The notes below the pieces were generated by a model. That model was not told the origin of the DNA and did not search any database. It saw only the letters and a list, made by a program, of their open reading frames with translations. DNA of 64,000 bases from Candidatus Rifleibacterium amylolyticum (GTDB taxonomy: Bacteria; Muiribacteriota; Ozemobacteria; Ozemobacterales; Ozemobacteraceae), in assembly GCA_009917695.1 (NCBI GenBank), contig JAACJG010000001.1, positions 143,219-207,218 of the forward strand, written 5' to 3'. The translations under genes were made by a program, and so were the position numbers. This document shows positions 15,774 through 47,957 of the stretch, piece by piece (position 1 is the stretch's first letter; the number at the start of each line of letters is the position of its first letter).

Positions 15774-17768
15774 CTATACGGTCAGGTCAACTGCTTTGAT
15801 ATTCAACGCAGCCCGTCTCAGATTGGGCAGCACATTCTTTCTTATAATCGCTTCAGCAGTGTCGTTACCGCCCGCCTGAATGCGACTGGATCTGTTTTTT
15901 CTGCCAGACATCTGATTCCTGTTACTTTCATCGGGATTTCTCGACGAAATGTCCACAGTTATTTCGGTCAAATTTACACCTTGATTGAGAAGCTGCTCTT
16001 TGATCTGGGGTGCCAGTTCTTCGAGACGTGCTTTGGCAAGGGCACTTTCGGCCGAAATGCGGGCCGATACTGTTCCATCCCTGGAGGTAAGTTCCATTTC
16101 AAGCTTGCCAAGGTCGCCGGGGTCGAGTTCCATGTTGAGAATCTTGCTGCCATTCTCTGTTTTCAGATATTCTGCCTTTTCAAGCATCTGACTGAAAATG
16201 TGAGTGGCGGCCGGAACCGGTGTGGCGGGCCTGGCTGCGCTCATCGAACTTGCGGGAGTGCCGTTGTGTGAAGAGAATCCGTTGCTTCCGTGGCCGGCAC
16301 TGTTGTTGTTCATGGCCGAATGTCGCTTTACCGCTTCAGGAGAGTAGGTTGCCGCTTCTGTAGCCTTTTCTCCGCCCCCAGTTTTTTCTGTGAACAGTGA
16401 AAAGAACTTTTTCGCAGCTTCTTCTACCGCTGCTTTTGCATGCTCAGGGGTTACCGGTTGGGCAGTTGCCGTCTGCATATTGGATTTGTTTGCGAGCACT
16501 GGTTCATCGGCTGTTTCGGCCTGGTCACTCGAGCTGGCTGCTTCGTTGATCGGCTGATTCAGACGCTTGAACTCTTCGCGCAGACTTTCTTCGTTTTTCG
16601 GCTGCTCACTGGTTTCACTGAGCTGGCTGGTTTCGACATTCTTTTCTTTGGTATTTCTCGTGGTTTCGTGACGTTCTGTGTCGCTCGCTGCTTTTTCTTC
16701 AGTCAGGGTTTCGCCTTCGGAATTGTTGGCAACGACTGCATCGGCAGCTTCTACGACTGTTGCCAGTTCAGTCGGGTCGTGACTGACTGCGTGTTCTTCA
16801 CTGTTTTTATCACCTTGTTTCCGCTCGTGCTCGACAACTACAGCCTCTTGAACGATTGTCTCAGAAACGGTCTGAGGCATGCTCTGCTGCGCGTTGGCTA
16901 CTTCGGCGGCTTTCTGCTGATCGGCCAGATTCTGCAGCAATTGCATCAGTTCAGGCGATTCTGCCAGCGTCAGTAACTCGTCCCTGGCTTCTGAATCAGG
17001 CATCGCATCGATCAGTTCACCGAGAACTTCTTTGAATGATTCCGGTGATTCGCTGAGAGCAGCAAGTTCCTGTGGCGAAAGGCCTTGTAGAAATTCGACC
17101 AGGGCAACCTTTTCGTCTTCGGTCAGAGTGCCTGCAAGTTCTTCGACCAGGGCCGCATAATCTAACTTTTTGTCATTTGCGCCGCTGACTTCGGTTTCGC
17201 TGTCAGAAACTCTGTTTGCGCTCAAACTGTCTGCTCCTTCAGTCCCTTCTGCAAGATCAATGGCTTCGCCTGTCGAAGTTTCAGACAGAATCTGTGTTTC
17301 AACCGTGCTTTCGCGTGATGGAAGTGCTTCGTCTCTAACAGAGAGGGTTCCTGATGCGTCAGTTTTGCTCTCGCCATCTTCAGCTATCTTCTCAGGGCTG
17401 TCAGTTGGCTCGCTAGCTACGTTCTGTGCTTCTTTGCCTGTTCTTTCTGAGGCGCTGACATTGTCATATTTGTCTCTGAATGATTCTGCCCGAACATCTT
17501 CTCTGAACTGATCATTGCGCACCGGAATTTCGAATTTTTCCGGACGTTCTGCCAGTAACGGGTTGATTGCAGAGATAGCACTGAAAGAATAGATTCTTGC
17601 ATTGCCGGTCACTTCACCAACCATGTTTTCAGCCGAAGTTGCGCCCAGTTGCTGCTGCAGCAGGCTGAGGAAGTCGCTGGAAGCTGATTTGTCGGTCGCA
17701 CTTTGCTTGTTCTGGGGTAGTTCAAACGTAAAAACCCCGGAAATACCAGCCAAAATGTCATTATTCAT
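15774..17768 (-). CDS. fliK: Flagellar hook-length control protein FliK.
   Basis: The 664-aa protein is acidic and low-complexity, rich in E/S/T/A. The C-terminal Flg_hook domain reads LDPGDLGKLEMELTSRDGTVSARISAESALAKARLEELAPQIKEQL. A strong RBS (GGAGGTG) lies 7 nt upstream of the ATG. Confidence 0.7.
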   Translation of the reverse strand: MNNDILAGISGVFTFELPQNKQSATDKSASSDFLSLLQQQLGATSAENMVGEVTGNARIYSFSAISAINPLLAERPEKFEIPVRNDQFREDVRAESFRDKYDNVSASERTGKEAQNVASEPTDSPEKIAEDGESKTDASGTLSVRDEALPSRESTVETQILSETSTGEAIDLAEGTEGADSLSANRVSDSETEVSGANDKKLDYAALVEELAGTLTEDEKVALVEFLQGLSPQELAALSESPESFKEVLGELIDAMPDSEARDELLTLAESPELMQLLQNLADQQKAAEVANAQQSMPQTVSETIVQEAVVVEHERKQGDKNSEEHAVSHDPTELATVVEAADAVVANNSEGETLTEEKAASDTERHETTRNTKEKNVETSQLSETSEQPKNEESLREEFKRLNQPINEAASSSDQAETADEPVLANKSNMQTATAQPVTPEHAKAAVEEAAKKFFSLFTEKTGGGEKATEAATYSPEAVKRHSAMNNNSAGHGSNGFSSHNGTPASSMSAARPATPVPAATHIFSQMLEKAEYLKTENGSKILNMELDPGDLGKLEMELTSRDGTVSARISAESALAKARLEELAPQIKEQLLNQGVNLTEITVDISSRNPDESNRNQMSGRKNRSSRIQAGGNDTAEAIIRKNVLPNLRRAALNIKAVDLTV

Positions 17769-17814
17769 CGTTTCACCTCCTTCCTTATCAATTTTGTATA
17801 GTTTCCCACTATCT

Positions 17815-17843
17815 TTATCGTCATAATTTTTCCGAACCCTTAG
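17815..17843 (-). promoter_or_regulatory. Candidate sigma-28 (FliA/SigD)-like promoter upstream of fliK.
   Basis: On the minus strand the element reads CTAAG-N16-GACGATAA, about 45 nt upstream of the fliK ATG. It is a weak match to TAAA-N15-GCCGATAA (6/8 in the -10 element). This is a motif-level guess only. Confidence 0.2.
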
Positions 17844-18378
17844 CGATTAATAAAAAAATCTTCTCCAGCCGCCCCCATCCGTCATCATAACGGTTCGAGC
17901 AGAATGACAAACTCGCACAAAGCCACTAAGACACGAAAATAAGGCCAGAAAAGAAAGGGAATAAATCCGCCGATTTCACAGACAGCAGAAGCTTTCTTCT
18001 TTTCTAAATGTCTTATTGCGAGCTTTCGCTTAAGATTATGCGCACGACCACTATTGCACGATTCTTCTTCATCGGTATCGCTATCGAGTTTCTCATTTTT
18101 ATCTCTCTGAACCCTTCTTCTGCTTATCCTTGCCACTGTTTCTCTTCCTGTTTCTCCGCGCCTCAGTGCGACCTTTCTTCTTCGCTGACCCTGCTGCGCT
18201 AAAGCTACGCAGGGCAGAGGGGAGTCGAATAACAGACTCGTGTAGAATGACTGATGTTTGACCAGGAATTACTGCAGATGACCCAGGTGCGTTGCATTTT
18301 TTTGGTCATGGGGGTATCCTGTTCACTCAGTTCTTTAAAGTTGTTTCTGGTTCTAAGCCTTATGCCAAGGAGTCTGCT

Positions 18379-20337
18379 TTGAGATATCTCTTCTGTATGT
18401 TGTTCATTCTGATTGTCTGCACCGCGTCAGCTGCTGATAAACTAGTCTGGCCTCTCAAGATAGAGATATCGCAAAGTTCCAGTTTCGCAGAATTCCGCGG
18501 CATGCGCCTGCACGCCGGCATCGATCTGCGCACACAGCGCCGCAACGGCTTGCCGGTGGTGGCGATCGCCGATGGTTTTGTTTCACGTGTCGGTGTTCAG
18601 TATCGTGGTTACGGTTATGCACTATACATCGACCATCCGGGCTTGAACGCCAGGGTTGTCTATGGCCATCTTCAAGACTTCCAGGGGCCGCTCAAGGAAT
18701 ATATCGACGCCAAACTGGCAAAAATGGGCAGTCGGCATGGCATCAATGATTTCTTCACTCCTGATCGCTTCCCGGTAAAAAAGGGGCAGGTGGTGGCTCT
18801 TTCTGGTGAGTCCGGCAGCGGGCCGTCACACCTGCATTTTGAAATGCGCAACTTTTCTGACGAGCCACTGGCTCCGGCAATGTTCGGCTACCGGCCGACT
18901 GATAACATCATTCCAGTTTTTCACCACTTTTATGTTGAGCCAATGTCTTATGCTTGCGTCATTGATGGCAGTTTTCTGCCGCAACGCTACAATCTCTCAA
19001 AGAAAACCGCCGTGCTTTATCAGCTGAATCCGGTTCCGGCTGTTTTTGGCAAAATAGGCCTGCAGGCAGGCATTTCCGATACCAATGGCGATGGCAACCG
19101 TTACGGAGTCGAGAACATCAATCTTGAAGTGAATGATACTATGCTGCTAGAGCGCGTGTTTCACCGTTATACTTATGAACAGAGCCGCCAGGCGACATGG
19201 GTTTACGACTATTTCAAGTCGAATCAGAAGGGAACCGGTTATGTCTATACTCTGTTCAAATGGCCATTTGACACCCTCTATTTTTCTTCTGGCCATCCTG
19301 TCTGGAGCGGAATCTTTGATGCAGGTTCGTTCGCCGGGAATTGCGCTGAATTCTCAATAAATGCTGAAGATTTTGGCGGCAATCGAATCTCGGCTGTTGG
19401 CAGCATCGTTAACCATCCGCTCGATTTTGCCAGCGAAATCGAAGCTTCTGAGCTCTCCAGCTTCAGCTTCGATCGCTTCGAACAGACCGATTATACTCTT
19501 GTGGTCATAGGAAGCCGAGGAAAGGGGCCAAAGATCACAAAAGAAGCCGGAATGGTTACCTGTCGTGACAGTCGTGGCGAAGCTGCAAAACTCAAAGCAT
19601 TGTTCGGCGGTACCAGGGTCGAGATTGCGTTTCCCAAAGAAAAACGTTGGCAGCATGGTGCCTGGCTCGGCGAACGGCAAATTTTGCCGGAGACAATGCT
19701 GGTCGGCCCTGAAGGCGCCACTCTGTCGCCGTTGCCTGACGCCAGTGTGGTATTTGCCCGCAACTCTTTGCATTTTCCGACATTTTGTTCTTTTCTGCGG
19801 ACGATCGAAAAGCCTGCTCCTGGCGGGAACGCGAAGCGAGGAATTCTTAAGCCCTACAGCGCTGTCTGGACACTTATGCCATCAGAAAAAGTCTTTGACG
19901 CAGAAGCCAAAATCAGTATACGGCCGGAAAATTACTCGGGCAGCCTTCAGAAGCTTGGAATTTACAATGTGTCTGATAGTGGCAAATATTCTCATAATGG
20001 CGAGAAGGTCGAGCAGGGAGCTTTGACTTTTACGACCCGCCTCGGTGGCAGTTTTGTGATTCTGGAAGACTTGATTGCACCGGTTATCAGTTATTCGCGC
20101 AAGGACAAAAATTATCATCTCGGCCCGGTCTATGTTTTCAGGGTTTCAGACCTTGGTGAAGGCGTCGATTATCTCAGTGCAAGTGCAACCGTTGCCGGCA
20201 GGAAGACCGAAGTCTACTCAGATCCGGATAAAGCCGAAATTTATGTGGTCAGGCCTGCAGGCAGCAACCACAAGGTCTCTCTAGAGGTGCGTGACAACGC
20301 CGGGAACAATGGTTCAATCAGTCGAATCATCAAGTAG
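18379..20337 (+). CDS. Secreted M23-family (LytM/lysostaphin-like) metallopeptidase with a long C-terminal extension.
   Basis: The HxxxD motif is present (GMRLHAGIDL) and the HxH motif is present (GESGSGPSHLHFEMR). The signal peptide reads LFCMLFILIVCTASAADK. The track ORF starts at a TTG at 18292. An in-frame TTG at 18379 has AAGGAG 7 nt upstream, and an ATG at 18397 is an alternative. Confidence 0.75.
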   Translation: MRYLFCMLFILIVCTASAADKLVWPLKIEISQSSSFAEFRGMRLHAGIDLRTQRRNGLPVVAIADGFVSRVGVQYRGYGYALYIDHPGLNARVVYGHLQDFQGPLKEYIDAKLAKMGSRHGINDFFTPDRFPVKKGQVVALSGESGSGPSHLHFEMRNFSDEPLAPAMFGYRPTDNIIPVFHHFYVEPMSYACVIDGSFLPQRYNLSKKTAVLYQLNPVPAVFGKIGLQAGISDTNGDGNRYGVENINLEVNDTMLLERVFHRYTYEQSRQATWVYDYFKSNQKGTGYVYTLFKWPFDTLYFSSGHPVWSGIFDAGSFAGNCAEFSINAEDFGGNRISAVGSIVNHPLDFASEIEASELSSFSFDRFEQTDYTLVVIGSRGKGPKITKEAGMVTCRDSRGEAAKLKALFGGTRVEIAFPKEKRWQHGAWLGERQILPETMLVGPEGATLSPLPDASVVFARNSLHFPTFCSFLRTIEKPAPGGNAKRGILKPYSAVWTLMPSEKVFDAEAKISIRPENYSGSLQKLGIYNVSDSGKYSHNGEKVEQGALTFTTRLGGSFVILEDLIAPVISYSRKDKNYHLGPVYVFRVSDLGEGVDYLSASATVAGRKTEVYSDPDKAEIYVVRPAGSNHKVSLEVRDNAGNNGSISRIIK

Positions 20338-20452
20338 TCGTCGTGTGGCTGGAAGGGTAAAAAAATTGACCTTGGTGGTGGTGTCGTGTTAGCAATTAAA
20401 GTTAAAGACATGAATTAGCTGTAGACAGTTTTTTATGAGGAGCCCCGCGCTG

Positions 20453-22120
20453 ATGAAACGCATTGGTTTATTACTGCTGGTCGCGTTTTTGCTTTCTTTC
20501 TCGCCGGTGTTTGCCGACAATGGCACTTCGATAGTCAAATTTGGTGACCTGCACGGCGAAGTAAATGTGCGACCGAATTCTGAAGACGATGATGCCTATA
20601 TTTTTGCCGAGCTTGCTACGCCGCTGCATCATGATGACCGCATCAAGACTTTGACGCGATCCGGTGCCATTTTGAGTTTCGCTGACATGACGACTTTTGT
20701 GCTCAAGGAAGATACGACGATTGTACTCGACATCGCCAACGAGAAGACCAGCAAAGTTGGTCTTCTGGCTGGAAACATCTGGGTGAACCTCAAAAAGATG
20801 GCAGCTGATGGGTCGCTTGAAGTCGAAATGGGGCAGGCGGTTGCCGGTCTCAAGGGCACCAATATCACCTGCTCGACCAGTAGTGGGGAAGACCGCATTC
20901 AAGTTTTGCGCGGTATTGCCAGCATCTTGATCAAAGAAACCAGAGAGAGAGTCGAACTCAAAGAGGGAGAAGAACTGATAATCAAAAAGGGTGCAAAGCC
21001 TGAGAAAAAAGAGATCGATGTCGCTGCTGAGCAGAAAAAATGGGAAGAAGAAACCTCGCGTCTTGGCGAATCGATAGAGTTGAACGAAATTCCAGATGTT
21101 CTGAAAGGCATTCTTGAATCAGAAACAGCTGAGTTCTCACGCATCAACGAGGCGTTTACGCGTATGCTTGCCCAGACCACGGTTGAAGAAGCCGAAGTTC
21201 TGGAATTACAGAAAGATGCAGAGCGCTTTCTCGGGATAATTCTTGAAGATAATCTGATTCTTGGATCAATGCGCAAAAAGGTTGATCTGGCAATGCAGAC
21301 TCCTGGGTTGCCTGCCGCAGATGCCGTCAGAATAGCCGGCCTGCTGCGCGAGATCGCAGCTGTTCTCGCGCGAGTGCAGGCAAATCAGTCTCAGGCGGCC
21401 AAGATAATACGTTATCAGTTCAAGCTTTCAGCCGTGATAAATGAAGAGTTGCAGACTGAAATTGAGCTCGTCAGCAATGAACTTGCTCAGACCGTATCCG
21501 AGGTTGATGCTGTCCGGGCAGTTATTTCAAGCAATCCGAATGGAAACAGCCAGGACTGGTTCATGGAAGCCCAGCAAACATGCTCGATGGCGCTGGTATC
21601 TCTTGAACCATTGCTTGAGAAAGTCTCCGCTCTTATCTCTGATAATCCGACAAGTATTGAAGCTCAGGCGCTGTTAAAGTCGATAACAGATCAGCAGGTA
21701 ACTATAAGTACACTTATGCGATCTCTGGCAGTAGTGGAAATTGATTCTGCTACAATAACCGAGTTGTCGCAGATAGATGACACATTGTCTGATCAGATAG
21801 TTGTTCTTCAGAACGAAATCACTGCTTATAACGCTTTGTCTGATTCTACCGTAGCCGAAAAAGAAACGCGCTTTGTTTCTTCGGTTAAGATCATGAGTAA
21901 TTTCGCCAAGGTTCGGCGGCAATATACAAATGCCCAGCGCCTTTATGAGACGACAGCCAAGGCTACCAGTTCTTCAAAATTCCGTACAGCCGAAATGGAT
22001 GAAGTAGACAGTGTGTACAATAGAATCACCGATAATTTTCAGCAGCTTGGTATCGCTGCTGAGGAATTAGAGCTCAACATTCGCGATCTCGAAAGTCAGT
22101 TGAGCACATATCTGAAGTAA
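20453..22120 (+). CDS. Secreted FecR-like-domain protein with a long coiled-coil C-terminal region (paralog A).
   Basis: The signal peptide reads MKRIGLLLLVAFLLSFSPVFA. The FecR-type beta-domain reads VKFGDLHGEVNVRP...HHDDRIKTLTRSGAILSF...TIVLDIAN...GNIWVNLKK. It is followed by about 350 aa of heptad-like helical sequence. The track starts at the ATG at 20435. The second ATG at 20453 has GAGGAG 10 nt upstream, and the same arrangement occurs in the paralog. Confidence 0.55.
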   Translation: MKRIGLLLLVAFLLSFSPVFADNGTSIVKFGDLHGEVNVRPNSEDDDAYIFAELATPLHHDDRIKTLTRSGAILSFADMTTFVLKEDTTIVLDIANEKTSKVGLLAGNIWVNLKKMAADGSLEVEMGQAVAGLKGTNITCSTSSGEDRIQVLRGIASILIKETRERVELKEGEELIIKKGAKPEKKEIDVAAEQKKWEEETSRLGESIELNEIPDVLKGILESETAEFSRINEAFTRMLAQTTVEEAEVLELQKDAERFLGIILEDNLILGSMRKKVDLAMQTPGLPAADAVRIAGLLREIAAVLARVQANQSQAAKIIRYQFKLSAVINEELQTEIELVSNELAQTVSEVDAVRAVISSNPNGNSQDWFMEAQQTCSMALVSLEPLLEKVSALISDNPTSIEAQALLKSITDQQVTISTLMRSLAVVEIDSATITELSQIDDTLSDQIVVLQNEITAYNALSDSTVAEKETRFVSSVKIMSNFAKVRRQYTNAQRLYETTAKATSSSKFRTAEMDEVDSVYNRITDNFQQLGIAAEELELNIRDLESQLSTYLK

Positions 22121-22258
22121 TTTCAAATCATGTGAGATACCTGCGTCTATTCTATAGCGATTTGAGAATCGCTGGATTAAAGTCATTGCGAGGAACGAAG
22201 TGACGAAGCAATCCCAATGACGTGAGTTTTGCAGGTCACTTAAACTGTGTCTCTTAAG

Positions 22259-22285
22259 TCTGCCCGATCCGGGCAGATTTTTTTA
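22259..22285 (+). terminator. Rho-independent terminator downstream of paralog A.
   Basis: TCTGCCCG-ATC-CGGGCAGA is a perfect 8-bp stem, followed by TTTTTTT. Confidence 0.6.
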
Positions 22286-22418
22286 TCATGACCTTCGATG
22301 CCTCACTGGGTAGGATCCATATTTTTCTTGACCATATAATGTAGACCATGGTAACAACAAATGTTTAAGTTGCACTCTATAAGCCAGAAAAGATGTTTTT
22401 TTGAGGAGTTTCGGAATT

Positions 22419-24122
22419 ATGAAGCGGATTGGTCTTTTGTTGTTGCTGATGACCTTTGTTTTTTCTTTGTCACCCGGTTTTGCTCAAAACGAGTCCACTA
22501 TCGTCAAGTTTGGTGATCTGCATGGTGAAGTTAACGTCCGCCCTGATAGTGAAGATGATGATGCCTATATTTTTGCCGAACTGTCTACACCTTTGCATCA
22601 CAACGACAGAATCAGAACGCTGACTCGTTCTGGTGCCATTCTGAGTTTTGCTGATATGACAACTTTTGTCATGAAGGAAGATACTACTATCGTTCTTGAT
22701 ATCGCCAATCAGCGTGAAAGCAAAATTGGTCTGGTGGCCGGGAATGTTTGGGTCAACCTCAAAAAGCTGGTGGCTGATGGTTCGATGGAAGTCGAAATGA
22801 GTCAGGCTGTTGCCGGTATCAAAGGCACTAATATTACCTGTTCGAGCAATCCGCAGGCTCAGGAAGACCGCGTAAAAGTTCTGCGCGGCCACGCACGGGT
22901 TCGCGTTAAAGCAACCAATGAAGAATTCGACGTTGAAGAAGGCGAAGAAATCGTTATTAAGCCAGAAACCAAGCCGGAAAAGCTTCAAATCGATATTGAC
23001 GTCGAGCAGAAGAACTGGGAAGAAGATCTTTCCAGGCTTGGCGAATCACTCGATATCGACGATCTCCCGGAGATCCTCAGAAATATCAATGAATCGTCGG
23101 CAGCTGAATTTGGCAGACTCAACGAAACATTTCAGGCTCTAATGGGCATGGAAAAGGTCGAACTTGCCGATGCGGCAGCGTTGCGAACTTCAGCCGAGCG
23201 GTTTGTCGGTGTTGTTCTTGAAAACATCCTCATTCTTAATAACTCACGCCGTCGAGTTGATGTTGCTATGGGGGTAGAAGGACTGACCGATGAACAGAGG
23301 GCGCAGCTTAACTCACTGACGAGAGAGATCGCCACTGCGTTAGCCAGTCAGCAAACCTACCAGACTGAAGCATCGCGCATGATGCGCTATCAGTTCCGAA
23401 CATCTGCCATCAGTGAAGAATTCCAGGCCGAACTCGAAATAATCCGCACCGAACTGGCTCAGATCGTTGGCGACCTCGACTCTATTCGCGCAATTATCTC
23501 AGGCAACATCAGCGGCCAGACCCAGGACTGGTTCACTCAGGCTCTTGATGAGTGCAATCAGGCGCAGATACGTCTTACTGATCTGTCGCAAAGAGTTGCG
23601 TCAATCATTTCCGAAGAGCCGACGAATCCAGATGCTCAGGCCCTGGTTAAGTCTATTGCAGATCAGCAGGCATCAATTCCTGGAATGCTTAAATCTCTCA
23701 CGGTAGTAGAGGTAGATACAGCTACCATAACTGAGATGCAGCAGATCGAGTTTGAAATTTCTGAAGCAATTGTAACGCTTGAACAGGGTATTCGCGATTA
23801 CAACAGCATCTCAGCCAGTCCTGTATCTGCCGCAGTCTCTAGAGCGACTATTATTGAACAGGAAGCACGATTGAAGGCATCGATTGCAATCATGAGTAAT
23901 TTCGCTAATGCCAGACGACTTTACCAGAAGGCACAGCGGAAATATGACTCAACAATGCGTTCAACTGCCGGTTCTGGAGTAAGAACCGGTGAACAGGAGG
24001 AAATGGATGCCCTGTGGATGAACATAAGCGACCGCTTTCAGCAGCTTGGAGTTGTTGCAGAAGAATTGCAGCAGCATATCCAGGAACTCGAAGACGATCT
24101 TAACTACATGCTTAATCGATAA
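22419..24122 (+). CDS. Secreted FecR-like-domain / coiled-coil protein (paralog B of the previous protein).
   Basis: It aligns visibly residue by residue with the 20453..22120 protein (VKFGDLHGEVNVRPDSEDDDAYIFAEL...TLTRSGAILSFADMTTFV...). The signal peptide reads MKRIGLLLLLMTFVFSLSPGFA. The track starts at the TTG at 22401. Confidence 0.55.
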   Translation: MKRIGLLLLLMTFVFSLSPGFAQNESTIVKFGDLHGEVNVRPDSEDDDAYIFAELSTPLHHNDRIRTLTRSGAILSFADMTTFVMKEDTTIVLDIANQRESKIGLVAGNVWVNLKKLVADGSMEVEMSQAVAGIKGTNITCSSNPQAQEDRVKVLRGHARVRVKATNEEFDVEEGEEIVIKPETKPEKLQIDIDVEQKNWEEDLSRLGESLDIDDLPEILRNINESSAAEFGRLNETFQALMGMEKVELADAAALRTSAERFVGVVLENILILNNSRRRVDVAMGVEGLTDEQRAQLNSLTREIATALASQQTYQTEASRMMRYQFRTSAISEEFQAELEIIRTELAQIVGDLDSIRAIISGNISGQTQDWFTQALDECNQAQIRLTDLSQRVASIISEEPTNPDAQALVKSIADQQASIPGMLKSLTVVEVDTATITEMQQIEFEISEAIVTLEQGIRDYNSISASPVSAAVSRATIIEQEARLKASIAIMSNFANARRLYQKAQRKYDSTMRSTAGSGVRTGEQEEMDALWMNISDRFQQLGVVAEELQQHIQELEDDLNYMLNR

Positions 24123-24143
24123 GGCTACCCGGAGGAAGATAAA

Positions 24144-26108
24144 ATGAAAAAATACACTGTTGCAATAATAGTTTTCGCGATAACAGTTCTGGGCAGTCCG
24201 CTGTTTGCCCTTTCGGCCGCAAGTGAGCGTGCTCTCGACGCTTTTCGGAGATATGAACCTGATTTTGCCAATTCTTTGCGCCGTCTTGAAGAGCTTGACC
24301 GACGCATGGAAAACCTGAATATTGATGCCGATAGTCCACGCGGTATCGAAATCAAAGACGAAGCTGAAGAAACGCTCAATCGTGTGCAGCGCCGCTACGA
24401 TTTGATGGAAGACCTGTTTACCAGCGTTTCTGCTGATTATCCTGCTGACCGCACTCAGCTGTTTGATGGGTTTTCGCGCATAGATGATCTTTATCGAAGC
24501 GTCCGCGATACATATCTTCAGAAATTTCTATATCGTGGCCAGAAACAGCCGGCTGCTAAAGAAGAGGCTCCCGCTGCCGCAAGCGAAACTGTTTCAGACG
24601 ATGGCGAGACGGCCGCTCCTGCCGCAGCATCCACCGCTACCACCAGAGTTGAAGATGAAAAGCGAGTAGACATCAGCGGCGTTTTAAAGCTCGATTTCAG
24701 AAATCGCAACGAAGTATATCGCACTCAGACCAACGCCGTTCCTAATGTGAACACAGAAGATGCTCTGCCGAACAACCTCAGGCAGGGTCGCCTTTCTCTG
24801 ACATTCAAGTTTGACGAAAATCGTCAGCTGTTTGCTGAAGAACGCTTTCTCAAGCGCGAACGCAATGAGCCAGTTCACGAAAACTATTTCACTTTGTCTT
24901 ACCTGCACAAAGTCGATCAGGATCACGTCTGGACACTCAAAAATACTTTGCAGCATGCCTGGTATCCTGAAAACGGCATCAAGGATTATCGCAACAATCT
25001 GATTGAAGCTTTCTATAACGAACGCTGGACCAAACGCGAAAGACTGGCTAATATTGGTTACCAGACCCGCATTTATCCGAGATATACGCGGTCAGATTTC
25101 CATCAGTTCAATCTCAGCGATCAGGAAACCTGGTTTAAGGAATTTGGCACCGTATTCGCTGAGCTGAAGGGCAATTGGCGCCGATATCGCAATGTCGATG
25201 ACCTCGACTATGATAACTTCAATCTCTATACCGAATATAATCGCAGCTACACGGGCAATAAAGCCGAACTGGCCCTGTCGAATACCTTCGATCGCCGAAC
25301 TTATGATCAGGAAGCGGTTAACCTTTACCGAACCAGTTACTACGATAATTATTTCAGGGTAACTTATGATCTGCCTGTTCACGACAGTCTTTCATACGGC
25401 TTCGAAGGCCAGCACCAGAAACGCAATTACGGTGCCGATGAACTGCGTGGTTATTCAGAAGTTAATCTGTTCAGTGCTGCACGCTTCAAAATCGACAAAG
25501 ACACCCGTGCACAGGCCGATTACCGTTATGTTTACAACGATGAAAACACTAAAATCCGCGCGCATAAAAACCACAAGATGCATGGGATGTGGCAGAAAAG
25601 CTATAACAAAGATTTCAAAGTTCGTCTTGATGATACATACCACATGCGCACTTCAGTCGTCGGTGAAACCATGGATTTCCGCGAAAATATGTTCACCGCC
25701 AAGCTGTCATGGCGTCTCAAAAGCAAAATCGATCTGACCTGGAACAATGAGTATCTGACCCGCTTCTATGACGAAACCTTCTATCGGGATTTCAGGTATT
25801 TCCTCAGTGGTCTGAACTTTTCTTATGCCAAACCTGGAACCTACGACTGGAAAGTTGATCAGAGCTGGCGCAAATTCTCTTTCCGTAACGGCAATAACGT
25901 AAACACCGGCTGGGAAGCAGAAGCACAGCCGATAACGCAGTTACAATACAATTATATAATTAACAGTGATCTCAAACTGCGTCTGAGAGCCTCATGGGAA
26001 AAGACCTACTACCGTTCGTTCGATTCTCTCTCTCAGGAATTGCTCTGGGATTTCGCCAGACCGATGACCATAACCGAATTCTTCGGCGGTCTCGAATACA
26101 CTTTCTGA
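24144..26108 (+). CDS. Putative outer-membrane beta-barrel protein with an N-terminal coiled-coil segment.
   Basis: The signal peptide reads MKKYTVAIIVFAITVLGSPLFALSAAS. An Ala/Glu/Pro-rich linker follows. About 450 aa is rich in Y/R/N/D/W/F alternating hydrophobic residues, and the C-terminal residue is Phe (...GLEYTF), as is typical for OMPs. It lies 22 nt downstream of paralog B. Confidence 0.5.
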   Translation: MKKYTVAIIVFAITVLGSPLFALSAASERALDAFRRYEPDFANSLRRLEELDRRMENLNIDADSPRGIEIKDEAEETLNRVQRRYDLMEDLFTSVSADYPADRTQLFDGFSRIDDLYRSVRDTYLQKFLYRGQKQPAAKEEAPAAASETVSDDGETAAPAAASTATTRVEDEKRVDISGVLKLDFRNRNEVYRTQTNAVPNVNTEDALPNNLRQGRLSLTFKFDENRQLFAEERFLKRERNEPVHENYFTLSYLHKVDQDHVWTLKNTLQHAWYPENGIKDYRNNLIEAFYNERWTKRERLANIGYQTRIYPRYTRSDFHQFNLSDQETWFKEFGTVFAELKGNWRRYRNVDDLDYDNFNLYTEYNRSYTGNKAELALSNTFDRRTYDQEAVNLYRTSYYDNYFRVTYDLPVHDSLSYGFEGQHQKRNYGADELRGYSEVNLFSAARFKIDKDTRAQADYRYVYNDENTKIRAHKNHKMHGMWQKSYNKDFKVRLDDTYHMRTSVVGETMDFRENMFTAKLSWRLKSKIDLTWNNEYLTRFYDETFYRDFRYFLSGLNFSYAKPGTYDWKVDQSWRKFSFRNGNNVNTGWEAEAQPITQLQYNYIINSDLKLRLRASWEKTYYRSFDSLSQELLWDFARPMTITEFFGGLEYTF

Positions 26109-26133
26109 GCCGACTACAGGAAATAAGAGGTAA

Positions 26134-27999
26134 ATGATTATGAATAAGTTGAGAGTCCTGTCAGTCCTTGTAATTCTTGCTATAACGCTTGTCGCAGCAG
26201 GTTGCGGCGGTGGTGGTGCCAGATCGGTTGAGATCGATAAAGACGTCGTTGGTATCACTTCTACCCTTAATAACTTCATTGCGGCCGCCCGCAGTGGCGA
26301 TAAGGCGACTCTTCAGTCCCTTCTCGCGTCACCTTCTGAATCTTATCTTATTGTTAAAGACTTTGGCGTAGATATTACAGACCCTGACGACAATCAGCCT
26401 TACGAATTCTACGTGAATCCTGATCTGATTGCTCAAACTTCGGCAGACCAGGCATATGTCTATGCTTACTACTTACTGCACAGCGGTGAACCACTCTGGT
26501 TGTATTTCAACATGGTGCGCGAAGAAGGCCGCTGGGTCATCGAAGAAATGAAGGAAAAGGCCCCCGAAGCCGGCGGTTACGTGCAACCGATCGAGCCGAC
26601 TCCGATCACCCCTGTTACTCCCAGTGATTTCGTTATTGCCAGCTTCAATCCTATGGACAGTAATATCGACAAGATATTTGCAATTGAAGACAATGCTGGT
26701 AATGCGAGCAGCACACGATTGATTACCAGCTATACCGAGCCATGGCTTGATTCAGATACCGGTATCTCTTTCGCCGAACTTGTGGAAATGTATGAAGAAC
26801 CAGATGGGGCATCTTATCAGGGTTTTGTTCCGTCTGATCTTATTCCGAACCAGAGGTCTATACGCAATAGCTTACCTCATGCGATTTCCAGAACAGTCGC
26901 TTCGAAACTTCGCAGCAGTCGCTTCAGCCTTCGCGGGCAGCTGGAAGACCCTAACGTTTCTGTCTATTACGGATTCGACAGCAGCGGCGCCATGTGGCTC
27001 AAACTCGTCGATTCTGTCTCGATCGTCATGTTCAACAATAACATGCCGATTAAGCTGTTCGAGCCTTCTCATCCATATGGCACGACTCGCACAGTTAATT
27101 TCCCGTATGAAGTTGATGGTTTTACTTACTCTTCTACTATCACTATCAATATCGGTTTCCCCACTTCTTTCACCACACCGTTGCAGACTTACACTGCTGT
27201 GCCGGTAACCTTTACCGATGTCGATGACGAAACCGGCGAAGGCGCCAAATGGACCGAATATCTCGTTCCCGTTATTGGAGAAGTTGGCTACGACGATTAT
27301 GAGACGATTACCTCGGCGACTCCGATCGAAAAAGACCGTCTGCTGACCAGATTTAATGGCGACGGATCTCTTAATGAGCGTAATGACCCTATTATTACCA
27401 ATACTAACACCAATCTGGGGACATATAATGTTGGCGACCCGATTACTGCCATGCAGGTAAATGTTTCTGGCGGGACTGCTCCTTATCTCTTCCGCTGGTA
27501 TCTTGCAGGCCCAACACTTTATAATCTGCCCGGGGTAACAGTTTCTCCTACGGGGCTCTTACAGGGTGTTGCACAGGGTTCTGGTGCTGGTGACATTTTC
27601 GAAGGAAAGCTTGAAGTCGTTGATAAATACGGTCGCTATTCAGTCAAGATTTTTTCTTATGAAACTCTGGTGGGTGAGGTAAGTGCCTCTGCAATAATGT
27701 TTTCTCCCCCCGTAGATTCTTCGCTCCCAATTGAAACTAGTAAAGAATATACGGTGTTGGTAAATGGGGGTTCTGTTCCCTACAACAGTTACACATTTTC
27801 GATCTCGCCGGATCCATCGACCTTTTCTTCAACCGCTAGTGTCGGGGTTTACCCGACGACCTTTGGTGATGATACCAGTCCGGCAATGTTGAGTGTGTAT
27901 GGCTTTACTTCTGGTTCTGTGACATTCACAGTTACTGCAACGAGCGTGTTGAATGAATATTCTTCTGATCCGATCACCATTTCGTTCAGCGCCCCATAG
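26134..27999 (+). CDS. Large lipoprotein with putative Ig-like domains.
   Basis: A lipobox is present (LTLVAAGCGGGGA). The C-terminal half contains segments resembling the 'putative Ig' fold (GGTAPYLFRWYLAGPTLYNLPGVTVSPTGLLQG). It lies 26 nt downstream of the OMP gene. Confidence 0.5.
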   Translation: MIMNKLRVLSVLVILAITLVAAGCGGGGARSVEIDKDVVGITSTLNNFIAAARSGDKATLQSLLASPSESYLIVKDFGVDITDPDDNQPYEFYVNPDLIAQTSADQAYVYAYYLLHSGEPLWLYFNMVREEGRWVIEEMKEKAPEAGGYVQPIEPTPITPVTPSDFVIASFNPMDSNIDKIFAIEDNAGNASSTRLITSYTEPWLDSDTGISFAELVEMYEEPDGASYQGFVPSDLIPNQRSIRNSLPHAISRTVASKLRSSRFSLRGQLEDPNVSVYYGFDSSGAMWLKLVDSVSIVMFNNNMPIKLFEPSHPYGTTRTVNFPYEVDGFTYSSTITINIGFPTSFTTPLQTYTAVPVTFTDVDDETGEGAKWTEYLVPVIGEVGYDDYETITSATPIEKDRLLTRFNGDGSLNERNDPIITNTNTNLGTYNVGDPITAMQVNVSGGTAPYLFRWYLAGPTLYNLPGVTVSPTGLLQGVAQGSGAGDIFEGKLEVVDKYGRYSVKIFSYETLVGEVSASAIMFSPPVDSSLPIETSKEYTVLVNGGSVPYNSYTFSISPDPSTFSSTASVGVYPTTFGDDTSPAMLSVYGFTSGSVTFTVTATSVLNEYSSDPITISFSAP

Positions 28000-28030
28000 G
28001 CGGCAAGGCAACGATCGTTTCCGGTTGTAA

Positions 28031-28073
28031 CAACACCCCGCAGCGGCACAGTCGCTGCGGGGTGTTGTTTATT
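28031..28073 (+). terminator. Rho-independent terminator ending the FecR-OMP-lipoprotein operon.
   Basis: CAACACCCCGCAGCG-GCACAGT-CGCTGCGGGGTGTTG is a perfect 15-bp stem, followed by TTTATTG. Confidence 0.55.
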
Positions 28074-28145
28074 GTCATCGCGAGGCATCCGCAGGATGCC
28101 GTGGCGATCTTATCGAAATAGATGTGCTGTGGAGATGTCTTTATC

Positions 28146-28319
28146 TCAATGCAGATTGTTAGAGTCGAGCCCGCCCGGAAAAGATGCTTCGGTAAGGATT
28201 TCCTGAATGATCTGCAACGCGCCGGGAGTGACCTTTTTGCTGGTGGTTGATTCAAAGCGACTGACGAAGGTATCGAGATTGGTGAGAATGAAATAGGCTT
28301 CGTTCTGGTTCAGTTTCAT
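28146..28319 (-). CDS. Small hypothetical protein of 57 aa.
   Basis: An in-frame ATG at 28319 has a canonical AGGAGG 7 nt upstream and gives MKLNQNEAYFILTNLDTFVSRFESTTSKKVTPGALQIIQEILTEASFPGGLDSNNLH. The longer track ORF starts at a TTG upstream. I recognise no domain. Confidence 0.3.
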   Translation of the reverse strand: MKLNQNEAYFILTNLDTFVSRFESTTSKKVTPGALQIIQEILTEASFPGGLDSNNLH

Positions 28320-28611
28320 GCCCGGGCCTCCTGTAAAATGTACATTTTTTTCGCTATCTTTAATACTTATCGACAATCCGCTCCCCAAAGTTTAGCTTTT
28401 TTGTAATCTTCTGTTATTCGTCATCCTGCGCGTCAGTCGCAGGATCCAGTAATGGTGGTATAAACATGGATTCTGCGACTTCGCGCTGAACGACTGAGAT
28501 AAGGCAAAGTCTTCTCTCTGATATCGGTTTGAAATCTCATATTATGTTTCTGCCTCGGACTTTCTTCGTGATTTTGTGGCTTAGTGCGAGTTTTCTTTGC
28601 GGCTGTCAAAA

Positions 28612-28661
28612 AGATTGTCTGTTGCGGGAGCGGGGAATTATGTATAGAATAGCGACAATCT
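28612..28661 (+). promoter_or_regulatory. Candidate sigma-70 promoter flanked by an inverted repeat, upstream of the HAMP sensor gene.
   Basis: The -35 element TTGCGG (28622..27) is followed by a 17-nt spacer and the -10 element TAGAAT (28645..50). It is flanked by AGATTGTCTGTTG at 28612 and GACAATCTGTTG at 28654, which form inverted GATTGTC/GACAATC arms with a shared TCTGTTG motif. This could be an operator. The reading is sequence-only. Confidence 0.25.
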
Positions 28662-28681
28662 GTTGTTTTTGATGAGGAATT

Positions 28682-29884
28682 ATGGCTTCACAAGATGAAA
28701 AATCAGGCAAGATCGCCTGGTATAGAAGAATTGGTAACCGAATCGTTCTCACGGCTATTGTTGCGGCAGTCCTGCCGCTATTTCTCCTGGGTGGCACTGT
28801 GGCGGTAAAAGTTCGTCTCGATCTCGTTCAACAGACGCTGACTTCTCAGAAAAATACCATGATGTCACTTCTGCATGGCTTTGGTTCGTTGTTTCAAAAC
28901 TATCGCAGACAGATTGAGTCTATGGTTGCCCTGCCCGACATTCAGTCAATGCGCCATGAGCGCCAGATTAAGATTGTTCATGACTTTCTCGATCAGCAGA
29001 AAATCTATTTTGGCTGCAATATTTACGATCGCGAAGGCAGAAAAATCCTGAGCGCAGTTCGCAATGACCAGGATTTTGGCAAAACTCCCGCTACTGGAAC
29101 CATCGATTTTGCCGGCGATCCTGCCTATGGGCAAAGCTTCAGAAATGTCGTCAAAACCCGCCAGGCCGCCATGTTCGCCAACGACGCTACTGAACTGAGT
29201 GAAAAAAAACTGTTTCTCATGGTTCCGATCAGCGACTTCGTAAATCCTGAAGAGGTTGTTGGTGTCATCAGCTGTTCGATAAGTATTTCTTCTCCGGATA
29301 TTCATGAGATAGTCTGTGGATTTCCGATCGCTGAAAGCGACATTCTGATTCTTCTCGACCGCCATGGCAATATCCTTTCTTCACAAGGTCATCTGCCCGA
29401 GGGTTTGCGTGCTATAAATGTCGAAAAGGTTTCCCGTAAAAAGATTGAGAATATTCTGCTCGACCTCGTCGGGACGACCTATCTTGGCACAATTGCTGCT
29501 CTGCCCGGTTCAGAAGGTCTTTTGCTGGTCGCGCGGCCCAGACATCTCGTTCTGGCGTTTCTCAATCAGTTGCTTCTCGATCTCGCGCTGATGCTGGTTG
29601 TGGCATTTGTAATTGCTGTGGCTGCCGGCTTTTTCATGTCGCGTTCCCTGGCCGAAGGTATAAGTATTCTGGTCGATGCCATACGAAATGTCGCCAGCGG
29701 CGCAGTAAGCCATCGCGTCGATCTCAGAGGCGAAGACGAGCTGGCTGAAGCGGCACAGGCTTTTAACGATATGCTCAATACTCTTGAAAAACATCGCATG
29801 ATGGATGATATCTGGCATCAAGAATGGGAATCGGCGCAAAAGAAGGCAGAGGGCGATTCCAGTCCGGAGGCCAGCTCAAGGTGA
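28682..29884 (+). CDS. Membrane sensor with a periplasmic Cache-like domain and a cytoplasmic HAMP domain but no output domain.
   Basis: TM1 reads IVLTAIVAAVLPLFLLGGTVAV. It is followed by an extracytoplasmic domain of about 250 aa. TM2 reads LNQLLLDLALMLVVAFVIAVAAGFF. The HAMP domain reads SRSLAEGISILVDAIRNVASGAVSHRVDLRGEDELAEAAQAFNDMLNTL. The ORF ends 40 aa later. Confidence 0.6.
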   Translation: MASQDEKSGKIAWYRRIGNRIVLTAIVAAVLPLFLLGGTVAVKVRLDLVQQTLTSQKNTMMSLLHGFGSLFQNYRRQIESMVALPDIQSMRHERQIKIVHDFLDQQKIYFGCNIYDREGRKILSAVRNDQDFGKTPATGTIDFAGDPAYGQSFRNVVKTRQAAMFANDATELSEKKLFLMVPISDFVNPEEVVGVISCSISISSPDIHEIVCGFPIAESDILILLDRHGNILSSQGHLPEGLRAINVEKVSRKKIENILLDLVGTTYLGTIAALPGSEGLLLVARPRHLVLAFLNQLLLDLALMLVVAFVIAVAAGFFMSRSLAEGISILVDAIRNVASGAVSHRVDLRGEDELAEAAQAFNDMLNTLEKHRMMDDIWHQEWESAQKKAEGDSSPEASSR

Positions 29885-32658: not shown

Positions 32659-33545
32659 AGATAACAATTTTTATAGTAACGCTGCTTGTCATTTTGATGC
32701 CGATTGGCTGGTTTGCAGCCTCAGATTCTGAAATGCTGCATCTTACTCCGATAATTGACGAGGTTTCGCCTCTATATATGGGCGTAATTCCTTTCATTCA
32801 GGCCGACAAACTTCGCGAACAGACGCAGCCGGTCGGTGACTATCTGGCATATCGTATCGGACGACCGGTCAGGCTTATCACTGTGCCTGATTACGAAAGT
32901 CTGGCCCGCCTGCTCGAACTTGGCAAAATTCATATTGCCTGGTTTTCGCATGCTTCGCTTGAAAAGCTGCGGAGAAACCGCGACTGGCAGGTTGTCTGCC
33001 GTCCGGTTCAGTATAACAGCGTGCTTTATAACGGGCAGATAATAGTACGTGATGACAGCCCATATCAGAGCGTGCATGATTTGCGCGGTCGCCGATTTGC
33101 CTATGTCGATAGATTTTCCGGGTCAGGATTTTACTTTCCCAATCTGCTTTTTGCCGCTGAAGGAATAAGGCCACTGGAATTTTTCAGCAATGTCGAATTC
33201 TCGCAAAGCCATCGCTCAAGTCTGCTGGGAGTGATGGAGGGAAGGTATGACGCGGCGGCTGTGTTCTCTTCTGACCTGGTATCTGAAGGCAGCAAAGGCC
33301 TGCGTGTCATCGCCCGCACCGGTCCTATTCCTAACGATCCGCTTGTTGTGCGTTCTGACATGGGTTCTGAACTTAAATCTCAGATAGAGAAAGCCATGTT
33401 GACAATGCACGAAGACGAAAAGGGTATTGCCTGTCTTAAAAGTCTCAAAGTCTTGCGCGGCACCACAAAATACGTTGCTGAAAGCGAAGTGCAGGCTCTT
33501 CTCAAAAAATCCACCTCGCCAGATCAACCAGCCGCCGACAGATAA
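32655..33545 (+). CDS. PhnD/SsuA-like periplasmic substrate-binding protein of the phosphonate ABC-type family. It is used here apparently without cognate permease or ATPase genes.
   Basis: A signal/TM anchor is present (KITIFIVTLLVILMPIGWFAA). A PhnD-like core is present (LYMGVIPFIQADKLREQTQPVGDYLAYRIGRPVRLITVPDYESLARLLELGKIHIAWF...YNGQIIVRDDSPYQSVHDLRGRRFAYVDRFSGSGF). Confidence 0.6.
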   Translation: MKITIFIVTLLVILMPIGWFAASDSEMLHLTPIIDEVSPLYMGVIPFIQADKLREQTQPVGDYLAYRIGRPVRLITVPDYESLARLLELGKIHIAWFSHASLEKLRRNRDWQVVCRPVQYNSVLYNGQIIVRDDSPYQSVHDLRGRRFAYVDRFSGSGFYFPNLLFAAEGIRPLEFFSNVEFSQSHRSSLLGVMEGRYDAAAVFSSDLVSEGSKGLRVIARTGPIPNDPLVVRSDMGSELKSQIEKAMLTMHEDEKGIACLKSLKVLRGTTKYVAESEVQALLKKSTSPDQPAADR

Positions 33546-46527: not shown

Positions 46528-47087
46528 ATAGTGTGCCCGGCATGGGCGATAACTCGGCGGTGCAAGTCCGCTACAGGCTTGGCAGCAGGAACTGTTAGCC
46601 AAAGGCAAGGGTGTCCACCGTGAGGTGGAATCTGAAGGAAGCCGGAGGCAAACCCTCGGCCCGATGAACAAGAACCGTATATAAGGCACTACGTGACTGG
46701 ACGAGCTTGCTATACAAAGCAAAGTCCGATACTGCCCGAGGTCTGCGGTGTAGATACGGCGGGTATATGAGGGGAAAGTTATCGTTCTTACCCGGGGAGA
46801 TCTTGTAGTGGTCGCCGACAAGAGGGATGGTTAGACAACCCACAGCGACAGGTGGGGCAGCAATGCCCCACTGAACTACAAGAAGTCAGCAGAGGCCATA
46901 GTAACGCGGCGATGCGCGAAGGGCCGAACAATGGTTAATCTTCGATCGTATGGATGGCGTGATGACGCAACGACTGCCGAATACTGTTCCAACAGGCTAC
47001 CTCTGCAATGATACGGTGGAACCGGAAAGTAACAGAGGAGCGCATAGCGCCGTTATACCAAAAATCGAAAAAAAAATCGAAACGAAG

Positions 47088-47957
47088 ATGGGTGCAGATG
47101 CTTTGCTCGAAATGGTGCTAGACAGAAATAATCTGAATCAGGCATACAAGCGGGTGAAGCAGAATGGTGGTGGCGCTGGCATTGACGGGATGACGGTCGA
47201 TCAAATGCTGCCTTATCTGAGAGCTCACGGGAGCAGTCTGCTGGAAGAACTTGCAAGCGGAAAATACCGTCCCCAACCTGTTAAAAGAGTTGAGATTCCG
47301 AAACCAGACGGGGGAAAACGACTGCTTGGTGTACCAACGGTAATAGACCGTATGGTTCAGCAGGCAATCGTGCAGGTATTACAACCGATATTCGAGCCGA
47401 CTTTCTCTGACAGCAGTTTCGGGTTTCGTCCGAAGCGAAGTGCACAGCAGGCGATCAAGCGGGCGAAGGAATATTATGAGCGAGGATACTCCGATGTCTT
47501 AGACATTGATCTCGCCAGATATTTCGACACCGTAAACCACAACCTGCTGATCAGAATGGTCAGGGAGCATGTGAAAGACGAACGGATAATCAACCTGATA
47601 CGCAAATTCCTTCGGAGTGGCGTTCTGGCTGGTGGTCTCGTAAGTCCGACAGAGGAAGGAACCCCGCAAGGTGGCAATCTTTCTCCGTTGCTCAGCAATA
47701 TTTACCTCACGAGCTTTGACAGACTTCTGGAAAGCAGAAATCATCGGTTCGTGAGGTATGCGGATGACTGCAATATCTATGTCAAAAGTCGTAGAGCTGC
47801 TGCCAGAGTGATGGCCGGATGTGTCAAATTCCTCGAAGGAAAGCTTAAACTCAAGGTTAATCGTGAAAAGAGCCGTGTCGGAAGCCCGCTAAAGCTGAAA
47901 TTTCTTGGTTTCTCACTGTATAAAAGGCAAGAAAACAGGAATAAGACCACATCATAA
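47088..47957 (+). CDS. Group II intron-encoded protein, reverse-transcriptase domains (fragment 1 of a frameshifted ORF).
   Basis: RT0/RT1 reads LNQAYKRVKQNGGGAGIDGMTVDQ. RT3/4 reads LDIDLARYFDTVNHNLL. RT5 reads FVRYADDCNIYVKS (YADD). The track ORF begins at ATG 46950, and the typical IEP start MGADALLEMVL is at 47088. Confidence 0.75.
   Translation: MGADALLEMVLDRNNLNQAYKRVKQNGGGAGIDGMTVDQMLPYLRAHGSSLLEELASGKYRPQPVKRVEIPKPDGGKRLLGVPTVIDRMVQQAIVQVLQPIFEPTFSDSSFGFRPKRSAQQAIKRAKEYYERGYSDVLDIDLARYFDTVNHNLLIRMVREHVKDERIINLIRKFLRSGVLAGGLVSPTEEGTPQGGNLSPLLSNIYLTSFDRLLESRNHRFVRYADDCNIYVKSRRAAARVMAGCVKFLEGKLKLKVNREKSRVGSPLKLKFLGFSLYKRQENRNKTTS

Follow-up and report, generated by a model that had tools for sequence, protein, structure and literature searches.

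This analysis concerns a cluster of five genes for predicted envelope proteins in Candidatus Rifleibacterium amylolyticum (assembly GCA_009917695.1, contig JAACJG010000001.1), located on the + strand at approximately 18.3-28.1 kilobases (kb) of a 64,000-nucleotide (nt) stretch of that contig. This stretch is hereafter the window, and coordinates refer to it unless another locus is named; one assembled contig of run SRR6186653 contains the same stretch. The five open reading frames (ORFs) encode, in order, an M23 peptidase, two paralogous FecR-domain proteins (A and B), an outer-membrane barrel protein and a lipoprotein, and with their putative signals they form what we call the cassette (lengths in amino acids, aa; stems below in base pairs, bp):

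18292..18320, + strand: conserved sigma-70-like sequence, the putative cassette promoter (alignment of five genomes)
18379..20337, + strand: M23 (LytM-type) metallopeptidase, 652 aa (Pfam PF01551, E 1e-13, and motifs)
20453..22120, + strand: FecR-domain/helical-repeat periplasmic protein, paralog A, 555 aa (Pfam FecR, E 1e-9)
22256..22290, + strand: intrinsic-terminator-like hairpin and T run, 3' of paralog A (terminator scan)
22419..24122, + strand: FecR-domain/helical-repeat periplasmic protein, paralog B, 567 aa, directly 5' of the barrel gene
24144..26108, + strand: outer-membrane barrel protein, 654 aa (three-helix N-domain, linker, ~24-strand barrel)
26134..27999, + strand: lipoprotein, 621 aa, with lipobox, Gly-rich tether, N-module and variable immunoglobulin (Ig)-like region (sequence, ortholog alignment)
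28029..28073, + strand: terminator-like hairpin closing the cassette, 17-bp stem and 7-nt loop (read directly)

An earlier sequence-only reading of this DNA had described five consecutive exported proteins on one strand, and all five + strand ORFs were found to begin accordingly, the first four with a signal peptide and the fifth with a lipobox, as read from the sequence. The stop-to-start gaps along the cassette were 115, 298, 21 and 25 nt, of which the last two are the 22 and 26 nt previously given for the last three genes under another counting convention. GAGGAG precedes the ATG of both FecR genes (20453 and 22419). The terminator that had been assigned to paralog A was recovered as the top score in a terminator scan, with an 11-bp stem including 6 GC pairs at 22256-22280 followed by the T run. 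The terminator described after the last gene was likewise present as a hairpin (28029-28069; 17-bp stem, then TATTG), although its T tract is weak, and a simple terminator scan missed it because that tract is short and weak. No Rfam match was obtained within 17000-29000, and the PADLOC defence models gave no match.

To define the distribution of the cassette, 80 loci (designated below by L numbers) were taken from species-representative genomes and the four protein families were mapped by tblastn and by hidden Markov models (HMMs) on six-frame translations. Full-length relatives of the FecR-protein, the barrel protein and the M23 protein were named only from Riflebacteria and Ozemobacteraceae, with a few bins labelled otherwise. 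The gene order was retained, strongly as a unit, in approximately 36 species-level genomes at identities down to ~38%, which argues that the cluster is not due to chance; the idea of a joint assembly passes the co-conservation check set in the earlier reading. The barrel gene lies directly 3' of the FecR gene in 36 loci, the lipoprotein N-module directly 3' of the barrel gene in 26 loci (as detected with an N-module HMM), and M23 upstream of or adjacent to the others in 31 loci; the gap between barrel and lipoprotein genes is 10-40 nt in most genomes.

Several loci depart from this arrangement. In Ozemobacteraceae of the L024 type, two divergent genes for Gly-tethered Ig-repeat lipoproteins stand just upstream of the FecR gene and none stands downstream, so that the lipoprotein genes have switched strand yet still adjoin the FecR-barrel pair; foreign insertions between M23 and the FecR-protein were considered for these loci and rejected, the genes there being cassette lipoprotein genes in opposite orientation. 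In the deep-branching loci L035 and L039 the FecR and barrel genes are accompanied by one for a lipoprotein of ~1700 aa, and neither M23 nor flagellar genes adjoin them. L037/L038 encode M23 and a long barrel together with two FecR-proteins, the first of them divergent. Secondary cassettes occur in genomes that also have the main one: in L032 an M14 peptidase gene precedes those for a FecR-protein, a long barrel and a lipoprotein; in L034 the FecR-protein and lipoprotein genes are flanked by one for a Big_5 protein on the upstream side and one for a CHASE2 cyclase on the downstream side; and in L036 two lipoproteins accompany a FecR-protein. The FecR-protein and an N-module lipoprotein are together in 3/3 of these, and the barrel is present in L032 only. 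From the absences of M23 and the synteny of the remaining trio, we take the firm core to be FecR-protein, barrel and lipoprotein, with M23 as a frequent fourth member. The M14 gene of L032 (L032:8046-9494, +, genome JAAYVD01) encodes a zinc carboxypeptidase and occupies the usual place of M23, just 5' of the FecR gene.

The FecR-proteins carry the export signals MKRIGLLLLVAFLLSFSPVFA/DNG (paralog A) and MKRIGLLLLLMTFVFSLSPGFA/QNE (paralog B), match Pfam FecR with E values of 1e-9 and 6e-10, and are 54% identical to each other across their full length; paralog B matches the Candidatus Rifleibacterium amylolyticum protein GQF41_0154 at 100% identity. The FecR domain begins ~8 residues past the cleavable signal peptide, no hydrophobic segment follows, and the protein has neither an anti-sigma domain nor a membrane anchor. 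The cassette FecR-protein contains the periplasmic FecR/C-terminal cell-surface-signalling fold, and the only solved structures matched by this head were the PupR cell-surface-signalling domain and the putative anti-sigma factor BDI_1681. An AlphaFold model of paralog B (mean local confidence, pLDDT, 81; predicted template-modelling score, pTM, 0.40) comprises a beta domain at 29-190 and ten predicted helices of 18-43 residues each at 193-566, for which the top fold matches were spectrin repeats and other helical bundles. The long coiled-coil stalk that had been proposed for these proteins is not what was modelled, and the FecR-protein is better pictured as a FecR-fold head borne by short helical bundles, which probably make up a rod, than as a single long coiled coil. 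Profile-profile comparison gave no relationship between these helices and the N-domain of the barrel protein. In a neighbour-joining tree paralog A clusters with the upstream FecR copy of each of the four other genomes that have two (L002, L003, L004 and L006). Only the Rifleibacterium clade, comprising the window and these four loci, shows the A/B duplication, which is separate from that in L037/L038. Independent duplications of the FecR-protein suggest that it may act as a dimer, and as an A/B heterodimer in the window genome.

FecR-type domains 37-60% identical to that of the cassette were also seen in Methanothrix, Bathyarchaeia, Anaerolineae, Clostridia, Acidimicrobiales and candidate-phyla-radiation bacteria. 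The proteins that contain them in these other phyla (loci L040-L081, e.g. L043:10001-10516 and L062:10001-10435) are ~250-1200 aa long (median ~480), with the domain usually in the C-terminal half and often after zinc-ribbon or MORN modules. Neighbourhood clustering of L040-L081 found no conserved partner gene beside them, and the sole recurrent neighbour cluster appears, going by its representative, to be an antisense shadow ORF.

The barrel protein has the export signal MKKYTVAIIVFAITVLGSPLFA/LS and ends in ...GGLEYTF, and no Pfam or NCBIfam family was found for it. Its structural model (pLDDT 83.9) consists of three N-terminal helices (25-129), a disordered linker (134-170) and a barrel (176-653) of 24 long strands joined by short connecting segments only, with no plug. 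Conservation was similar in the N-domain (0.62) and the barrel (0.61) and much lower in the linker (0.15), which ranges from ~35 to ~470 residues across orthologs, the longest being of low complexity. The nearest shapes were MtrB, PapC, LptD and the TonB-dependent transporters, all of which enclose a partner or a plug. The barrel profile, run exhaustively with HMMER against 1.84 billion cluster representatives, retrieved 24; of these, 17 fell below E 1e-30 and several were only fragments, and those already named in earlier searches are from Riflebacteria. Judged from its sequence, the protein is a new large-barrel family with no detectable relatives beyond these 24 cluster representatives.

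The fifth protein is a predicted lipoprotein, its signal peptide ending in the lipobox LVAAG/C with the Cys at residue 24, followed by GGGG, a pattern repeated in orthologs. Behind the Gly-rich tether lies the N-module, ~120 residues conserved among 18 aligned orthologs and weakly NTF2-like (PDB match, E 0.028). The remainder is variable: Ig-like domains of the He_PIG, Big_5 or PKD families are lacking in some orthologs and number more than 12 in others, with lengths of 197-1719 aa; the 1719-aa variants would be too long for the periplasm. The earlier designation of this gene product as an Ig-domain lipoprotein is thus clear for the orthologs, while the window protein itself gave only a weak SprB-repeat match.

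The M23 protein starts with the export signal MRYLFCMLFILIVCTASA/ADK and has a single reported Pfam domain (M23, E 1e-13, 51.5 bits against a cut-off of 28.7) with an internal insertion of ~30 residues. The window protein retains HAGID, YGHL and HLH, its zinc-binding and catalytic motifs, which are invariant in 44 homologs, and profile searches matched TagE, LytM, lysostaphin and DipM; the protein is a LytM-type peptidase with HxxxD, HxH and the catalytic His, and is predicted to be active. Its C-terminal region of ~450 aa gave only weak protocadherin, cadherin and Ig-type matches, is probably Ig/cadherin-like, and showed no relationship to the lipoprotein by BLASTP. Relatives with the full-length architecture are restricted to Riflebacteria, and most homologs are 640-660 aa long. 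The start of the gene and cassette had been placed at 18292, a position to be read not as a start codon but as the -35 box of a conserved, putative sigma-70-like promoter. The most likely start is the TTG at 18379, behind AAGGAG at 18367-18372, which yields a protein of 652 aa in line with the homolog lengths. When the fliK-M23 spacers of five genomes were aligned, two conserved blocks emerged, one a fliK-proximal block with promoter and ribosome-binding site and the other the cassette promoter block, TTGCAT-N17-TAT(C/T)CT-GTTCACTC, which begins exactly at 18292. In the window this reads as a -35 TTGCAT, a 17-nt spacer and a -10 TATCCT at 18315-18320, followed by a conserved TGTTCACTCAG.

Comparison with described envelope systems yielded partial likenesses throughout. 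The cassette FecR gene lies directly 5' of a gene for a large barrel with an additional N-terminal periplasmic domain, followed by a lipoprotein gene, an order that recalls both FecR/PupR with TonB-dependent transducers and the anti-sigma/SusC/SusD loci of Bacteroidota. Unlike FecR and PupR, however, the cassette FecR-protein lacks a cytoplasmic anti-sigma domain and a transmembrane helix and has ~370 residues of helical repeats after the head, and unlike TonB-dependent transducers and transporters the barrel has ~24 rather than 22 strands and neither plug nor STN domain; domain scans of the barrel protein gave no match to Plug, TonB_dep_Rec or STN. Among the genuine genes scanned at 337-47957 there was no sigma-factor family member, and no gene for an extracytoplasmic-function sigma factor lies nearby. 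MtrB was the top Foldseek match of the barrel (E 5e-15, template-modelling (TM) score 0.47), and in MtrB-MtrC-MtrA, too, a large short-loop barrel is encoded with a periplasmic partner and a lipoprotein, the latter located on the cell surface. At ~10% identity the relation is one of analogy, not homology; the cassette barrel gave no match to the MtrB/PioB Pfam family, and no CxxCH haem motif was found in the five cassette proteins.

A barrel gene is also paired with a lipoprotein gene in LptD-LptE, where the lipoprotein sits inside the barrel, and in Slam systems, where the barrel protein bears a helical periplasmic domain at its N-terminus and its gene adjoins that of its substrate, a surface lipoprotein. 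The strand numbers of LptD and Slam (26 and 14) differ from the ~24 of the cassette barrel, and domain scans of the cassette proteins gave no match to OstA/LptD, LptE, DUF560 or the Slam TPR domain. The OmpM/SlpA tethers of diderm Terrabacteria share the broad taxonomic setting and the combination of a periplasmic helical region with a C-terminal barrel, but at its N-terminus the cassette barrel protein carries, by way of a disordered linker, a short domain of three helices rather than a long trimeric coiled coil, and neither Pfam nor NCBIfam detected SLH in the barrel protein or in its N-terminal 185 residues. The M23 catalytic domain, with its HxxxD, HxH and catalytic His, resembles those of the LytM/lysostaphin-type endopeptidases TagE, ShyA, DipM and Pgp3, from which the cassette enzyme differs by the ~30-residue insertion and the uncharacterised C-terminal region. 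Leptospira LipL45 and Lsa19 are likewise exported FecR-domain proteins with no anti-sigma module; the NCBIfam matches to these families were weak (paralog B, E 1e-8 and 2.5e-6; paralog A, 3e-4, Lsa19 only) and far under the family cut-offs, and the Leptospira proteins are lipoproteins that lack the helical repeat region. Profile searches of the barrel, FecR-protein, M23 protein and lipoprotein N-module against PDB chains returned no specific match other than the M23 domain, generic helical bundles and the weak NTF2-like match. The parts of the cassette are of known kinds (M23, FecR fold, beta-barrel and Ig-like repeats), and we regard the way they are arranged as a novel form of barrel-lipoprotein complex, one that has a FecR-type periplasmic partner.

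The sequence-only reading had seen in these genes a trans-envelope assembly that could not be named. The searches run assigned none of the genes to a well-characterised functional system, and a joint envelope assembly, not yet nameable, fits what was found; the term trans-envelope does not, because all five proteins have a cleavable signal peptide or a lipobox and none is anchored in the inner membrane. The products probably form a module of the periplasm, the outer membrane and probably the cell surface. The explanation towards which we lean, with somewhat less than even confidence, is a Riflebacteria-specific outer-membrane/periplasm module whose parts act together, the barrel anchoring or exporting the Ig array of the lipoprotein, the FecR rod docking to it and M23 trimming peptidoglycan. 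The plugless ~24-strand barrel would serve as outer-membrane anchor or conduit for the lipoprotein encoded by the adjacent gene, whose conserved N-module would dock in or at the barrel; LptE-LptD and MtrC-MtrB are solved precedents for a lipoprotein with a large barrel. The variable Ig-like array might then face outward from the cell and serve as an adhesin or sensor. On the periplasmic side, the FecR head could bind the flexibly tethered N-terminal helical domain of the barrel protein as FecR/PupR binds the signalling domain of a transducer, and the spectrin-like helical repeats would form a rod, probably dimeric, into or through the peptidoglycan layer, where M23 would cut peptide cross-links locally and so let the assembly sit in the wall. 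We infer all of these contacts, as well as the surface location of the lipoprotein and the role of M23.

Several observations weigh against this explanation. The low pTM of the FecR-protein model leaves the shape of the rod uncertain; the likeness of the barrel to MtrB, PapC and LptD is generic (6-11% identity, TM score at most 0.47); and the N-domain of the barrel protein is helical, whereas FecR/PupR binds an STN fold. In L034 and L036 no barrel was detected next to the FecR-protein and lipoprotein, and M23 is missing beside the deep-branching L035 and L039 and the secondary L032, L034 and L036. Surface exposure of the lipoprotein, finally, is suggested solely by its size and domain type.

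The main alternative is a variant of cell-surface signalling that is compatible with the explanation given above: barrel and lipoprotein would sense at the surface, and the FecR rod, as a soluble protein, would pass the signal through the periplasm to the CHASE2 sensor of an inner-membrane adenylate cyclase with no sigma factor involved. The structural matches of the FecR head, confined to PupR and BDI_1681, favour such a relay, and in Burkholderiales and P. aeruginosa genes for soluble LysM-FecR periplasmic proteins adjoin those for CHASE2 histidine kinases (PMC5192318). A cyclase lies ~3-14 kb from the cassette in several arrangements (L027, L034, L046 and the shared synteny of the window, L021 and L038), and in L034 it is directly 3' of the lipoprotein gene. 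In the window, however, it is 12 kb away behind eight other genes, including one for a glycogen branching enzyme, the proximity of cyclases to the cassette may be due to chance, and a relay leaves the M23 enzyme unexplained; on balance we consider it unlikely. The window cyclase, a CHASE2 adenylate/guanylate cyclase of 981 aa, is encoded at 39908-42853 (+), and those near the cassette in the other loci are its paralogs or orthologs.

The position of the cassette suggested a flagellar role, in which M23 would open the peptidoglycan for the rod and the other products would build an outer-membrane/periplasmic structure around the motor. Upstream on the minus strand lie fliK, flgD, flgE, fliL, fliM, fliN/Y, fliO, fliP, fliR, flhB, flhA and a gene for a MinD-like ATPase, and in at least 24 loci, at identities down to ~37%, the M23 gene and fliK-flgD-flgE point away from each other; even in interrupted clusters (L021, L024, L025 and L030) M23 remains beside fliK. 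In some bacteria, moreover, the muramidase domain of FlgJ is replaced by M23-type domains; the cassette M23 protein has no FlgJ rod-binding domain in a Pfam scan. The consensus of sigma-28 promoters is TAAA-N15-GCCGATAA, and by this measure TAAGGGTT-N12-GACGATAA, found on the minus strand ~47 nt upstream of fliK (17815-17842) and at the corresponding site in at least 15 Riflebacteria loci, would be a conserved sigma-28-type promoter. fliK thus appears to have a promoter of its own, whereas the M23 side has the sigma-70-like box and no conserved sigma-28-type motif (a single non-conserved match in the window); the spacer between fliK and M23 varies from 110 to 1757 nt. The M23-FecR-barrel cassette of L037/L038 has no fliK neighbour, that of L038 following ruvC, and L035/L039 have no flagellar neighbours, the L039 cassette following pfkB and cheW-type genes. 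The whole region is syntenic, including the downstream HAMP, HEAT and PhnD genes, which makes adjacency weak evidence, and a monomeric ~24-strand barrel would presumably not admit a flagellar rod. The divergence of the cassette from fliK noted earlier is thus old and widely conserved as a position, but given the separate promoters and the cassettes away from fliK no functional tie to the flagellum was borne out; in view of those cassettes and the syntenic downstream genes, the link is positional only and a flagellar accessory function is improbable. As a separate observation, the FlgE hook protein (11798-14542, minus) is 914 aa long, ~2x the usual length, and is kept at full length with 77-93% identity in many Riflebacteria loci; its alignment splits into two pieces in L023, L031 and L052.

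Alternatively, the cassette could encode an outer-membrane tether or division helper, with the barrel N-domain or the FecR rod binding peptidoglycan and M23 splitting septal wall, in substitution for functions of the Tol-Pal/NlpD type, which diderm Terrabacteria are not known to have. The domain-linker-barrel layout is like that of OmpA- and OmpM-type tethers, an M23 with an intact active site is in the cluster, and Pal is reported absent from Terrabacteria, including Riflebacteria (preprint 10.1101/2021.05.31.446380). The same preprint, however, reports an SLH-type OmpM as well as OmpA in Riflebacteria, so that a tether is already present, and domain scans detected no known peptidoglycan-binding domain, whether SLH, OmpA_C, LysM or another; nor would such a role account for the hypervariable Ig-repeat lipoprotein. 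A tether or division role is weakened by the reported OmpM and OmpA and by the lack of a wall-binding domain, and we hold it to be quite improbable. That the five are unrelated envelope genes kept adjacent only by phylum-wide conservation of genome order is the least credible account, its support from the equally syntenic genes on both flanks and from the terminator inside the cassette being outweighed by the very short intergenic gaps and by the recurrence of the trio in other neighbourhoods (L035/L039 and L037/L038) and in secondary cassettes (L032, L034 and L036).

The Riflebacteria are uncultivated diderm Terrabacteria with unusually many unknown phylum-specific genes (PMC10849945), and diderms of this type are reported to be without Pal/Lpp-type systems (preprint 10.1101/2021.05.31.446380). 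How the outer membrane is built, tethered and decorated in diderm Terrabacteria is poorly known, and this phylum-wide operon-like unit is a tangible candidate for an apparatus of surface display or surface sensing particular to the lineage. If the barrel is a lipoprotein translocon or anchor, it would be a new solution to the problem of surface-lipoprotein export; if the rod relays to the CHASE2 cyclase, it would provide a ligand or partner context for CHASE2. A bolder formulation, which we regard as doubtful, is that of an undescribed outer-membrane machine of diderm Terrabacteria in which new ~24-strand barrels export and anchor long Ig-repeat surface lipoproteins and a FecR/spectrin-like rod couples them to the wall or to a CHASE2 cyclase. 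Were it true, the FecR fold would be used outside its sigma/anti-sigma context and a new route of surface-lipoprotein display would have been found. The cassette is accordingly to be regarded as a well-delimited target rather than as a demonstrated mechanism.

Several other genes of the window deserve mention. Between the cassette terminator and the HAMP operon lies a 57-aa ORF (28146-28319, minus), which is a gene call on the Logan contig with no family match. Directly 3' of the cassette, a three-gene unit at 28682-33545 (+) encodes a dCache-HAMP membrane protein without an output domain, overlapped by an MFS-like/HEAT-repeat fusion, and then a PhnD-like binding protein; this unit is syntenic in many, not all, Riflebacteria. 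A gingipain-type C25 cysteine peptidase, exported and of surface type, with a propeptide and a C-terminal Big_1 Ig-like domain, is encoded at 44529-46475 (+). At 46950-48363 (+), an RVT_1 reverse transcriptase (335 aa) and a GIIM maturase domain (152 aa) in two overlapping frames appear to be parts of one group II intron protein interrupted by a frameshift; a diversity-generating retroelement was considered for this reverse transcriptase and rejected, no direct repeats lying nearby and the gene being a group II intron maturase. Further downstream, at 53205-62724 (minus), two adjacent giant tetratricopeptide-repeat (TPR) proteins of 1535 and 1616 aa are encoded upstream of an FtsK/SpoIIIE gene fragment.

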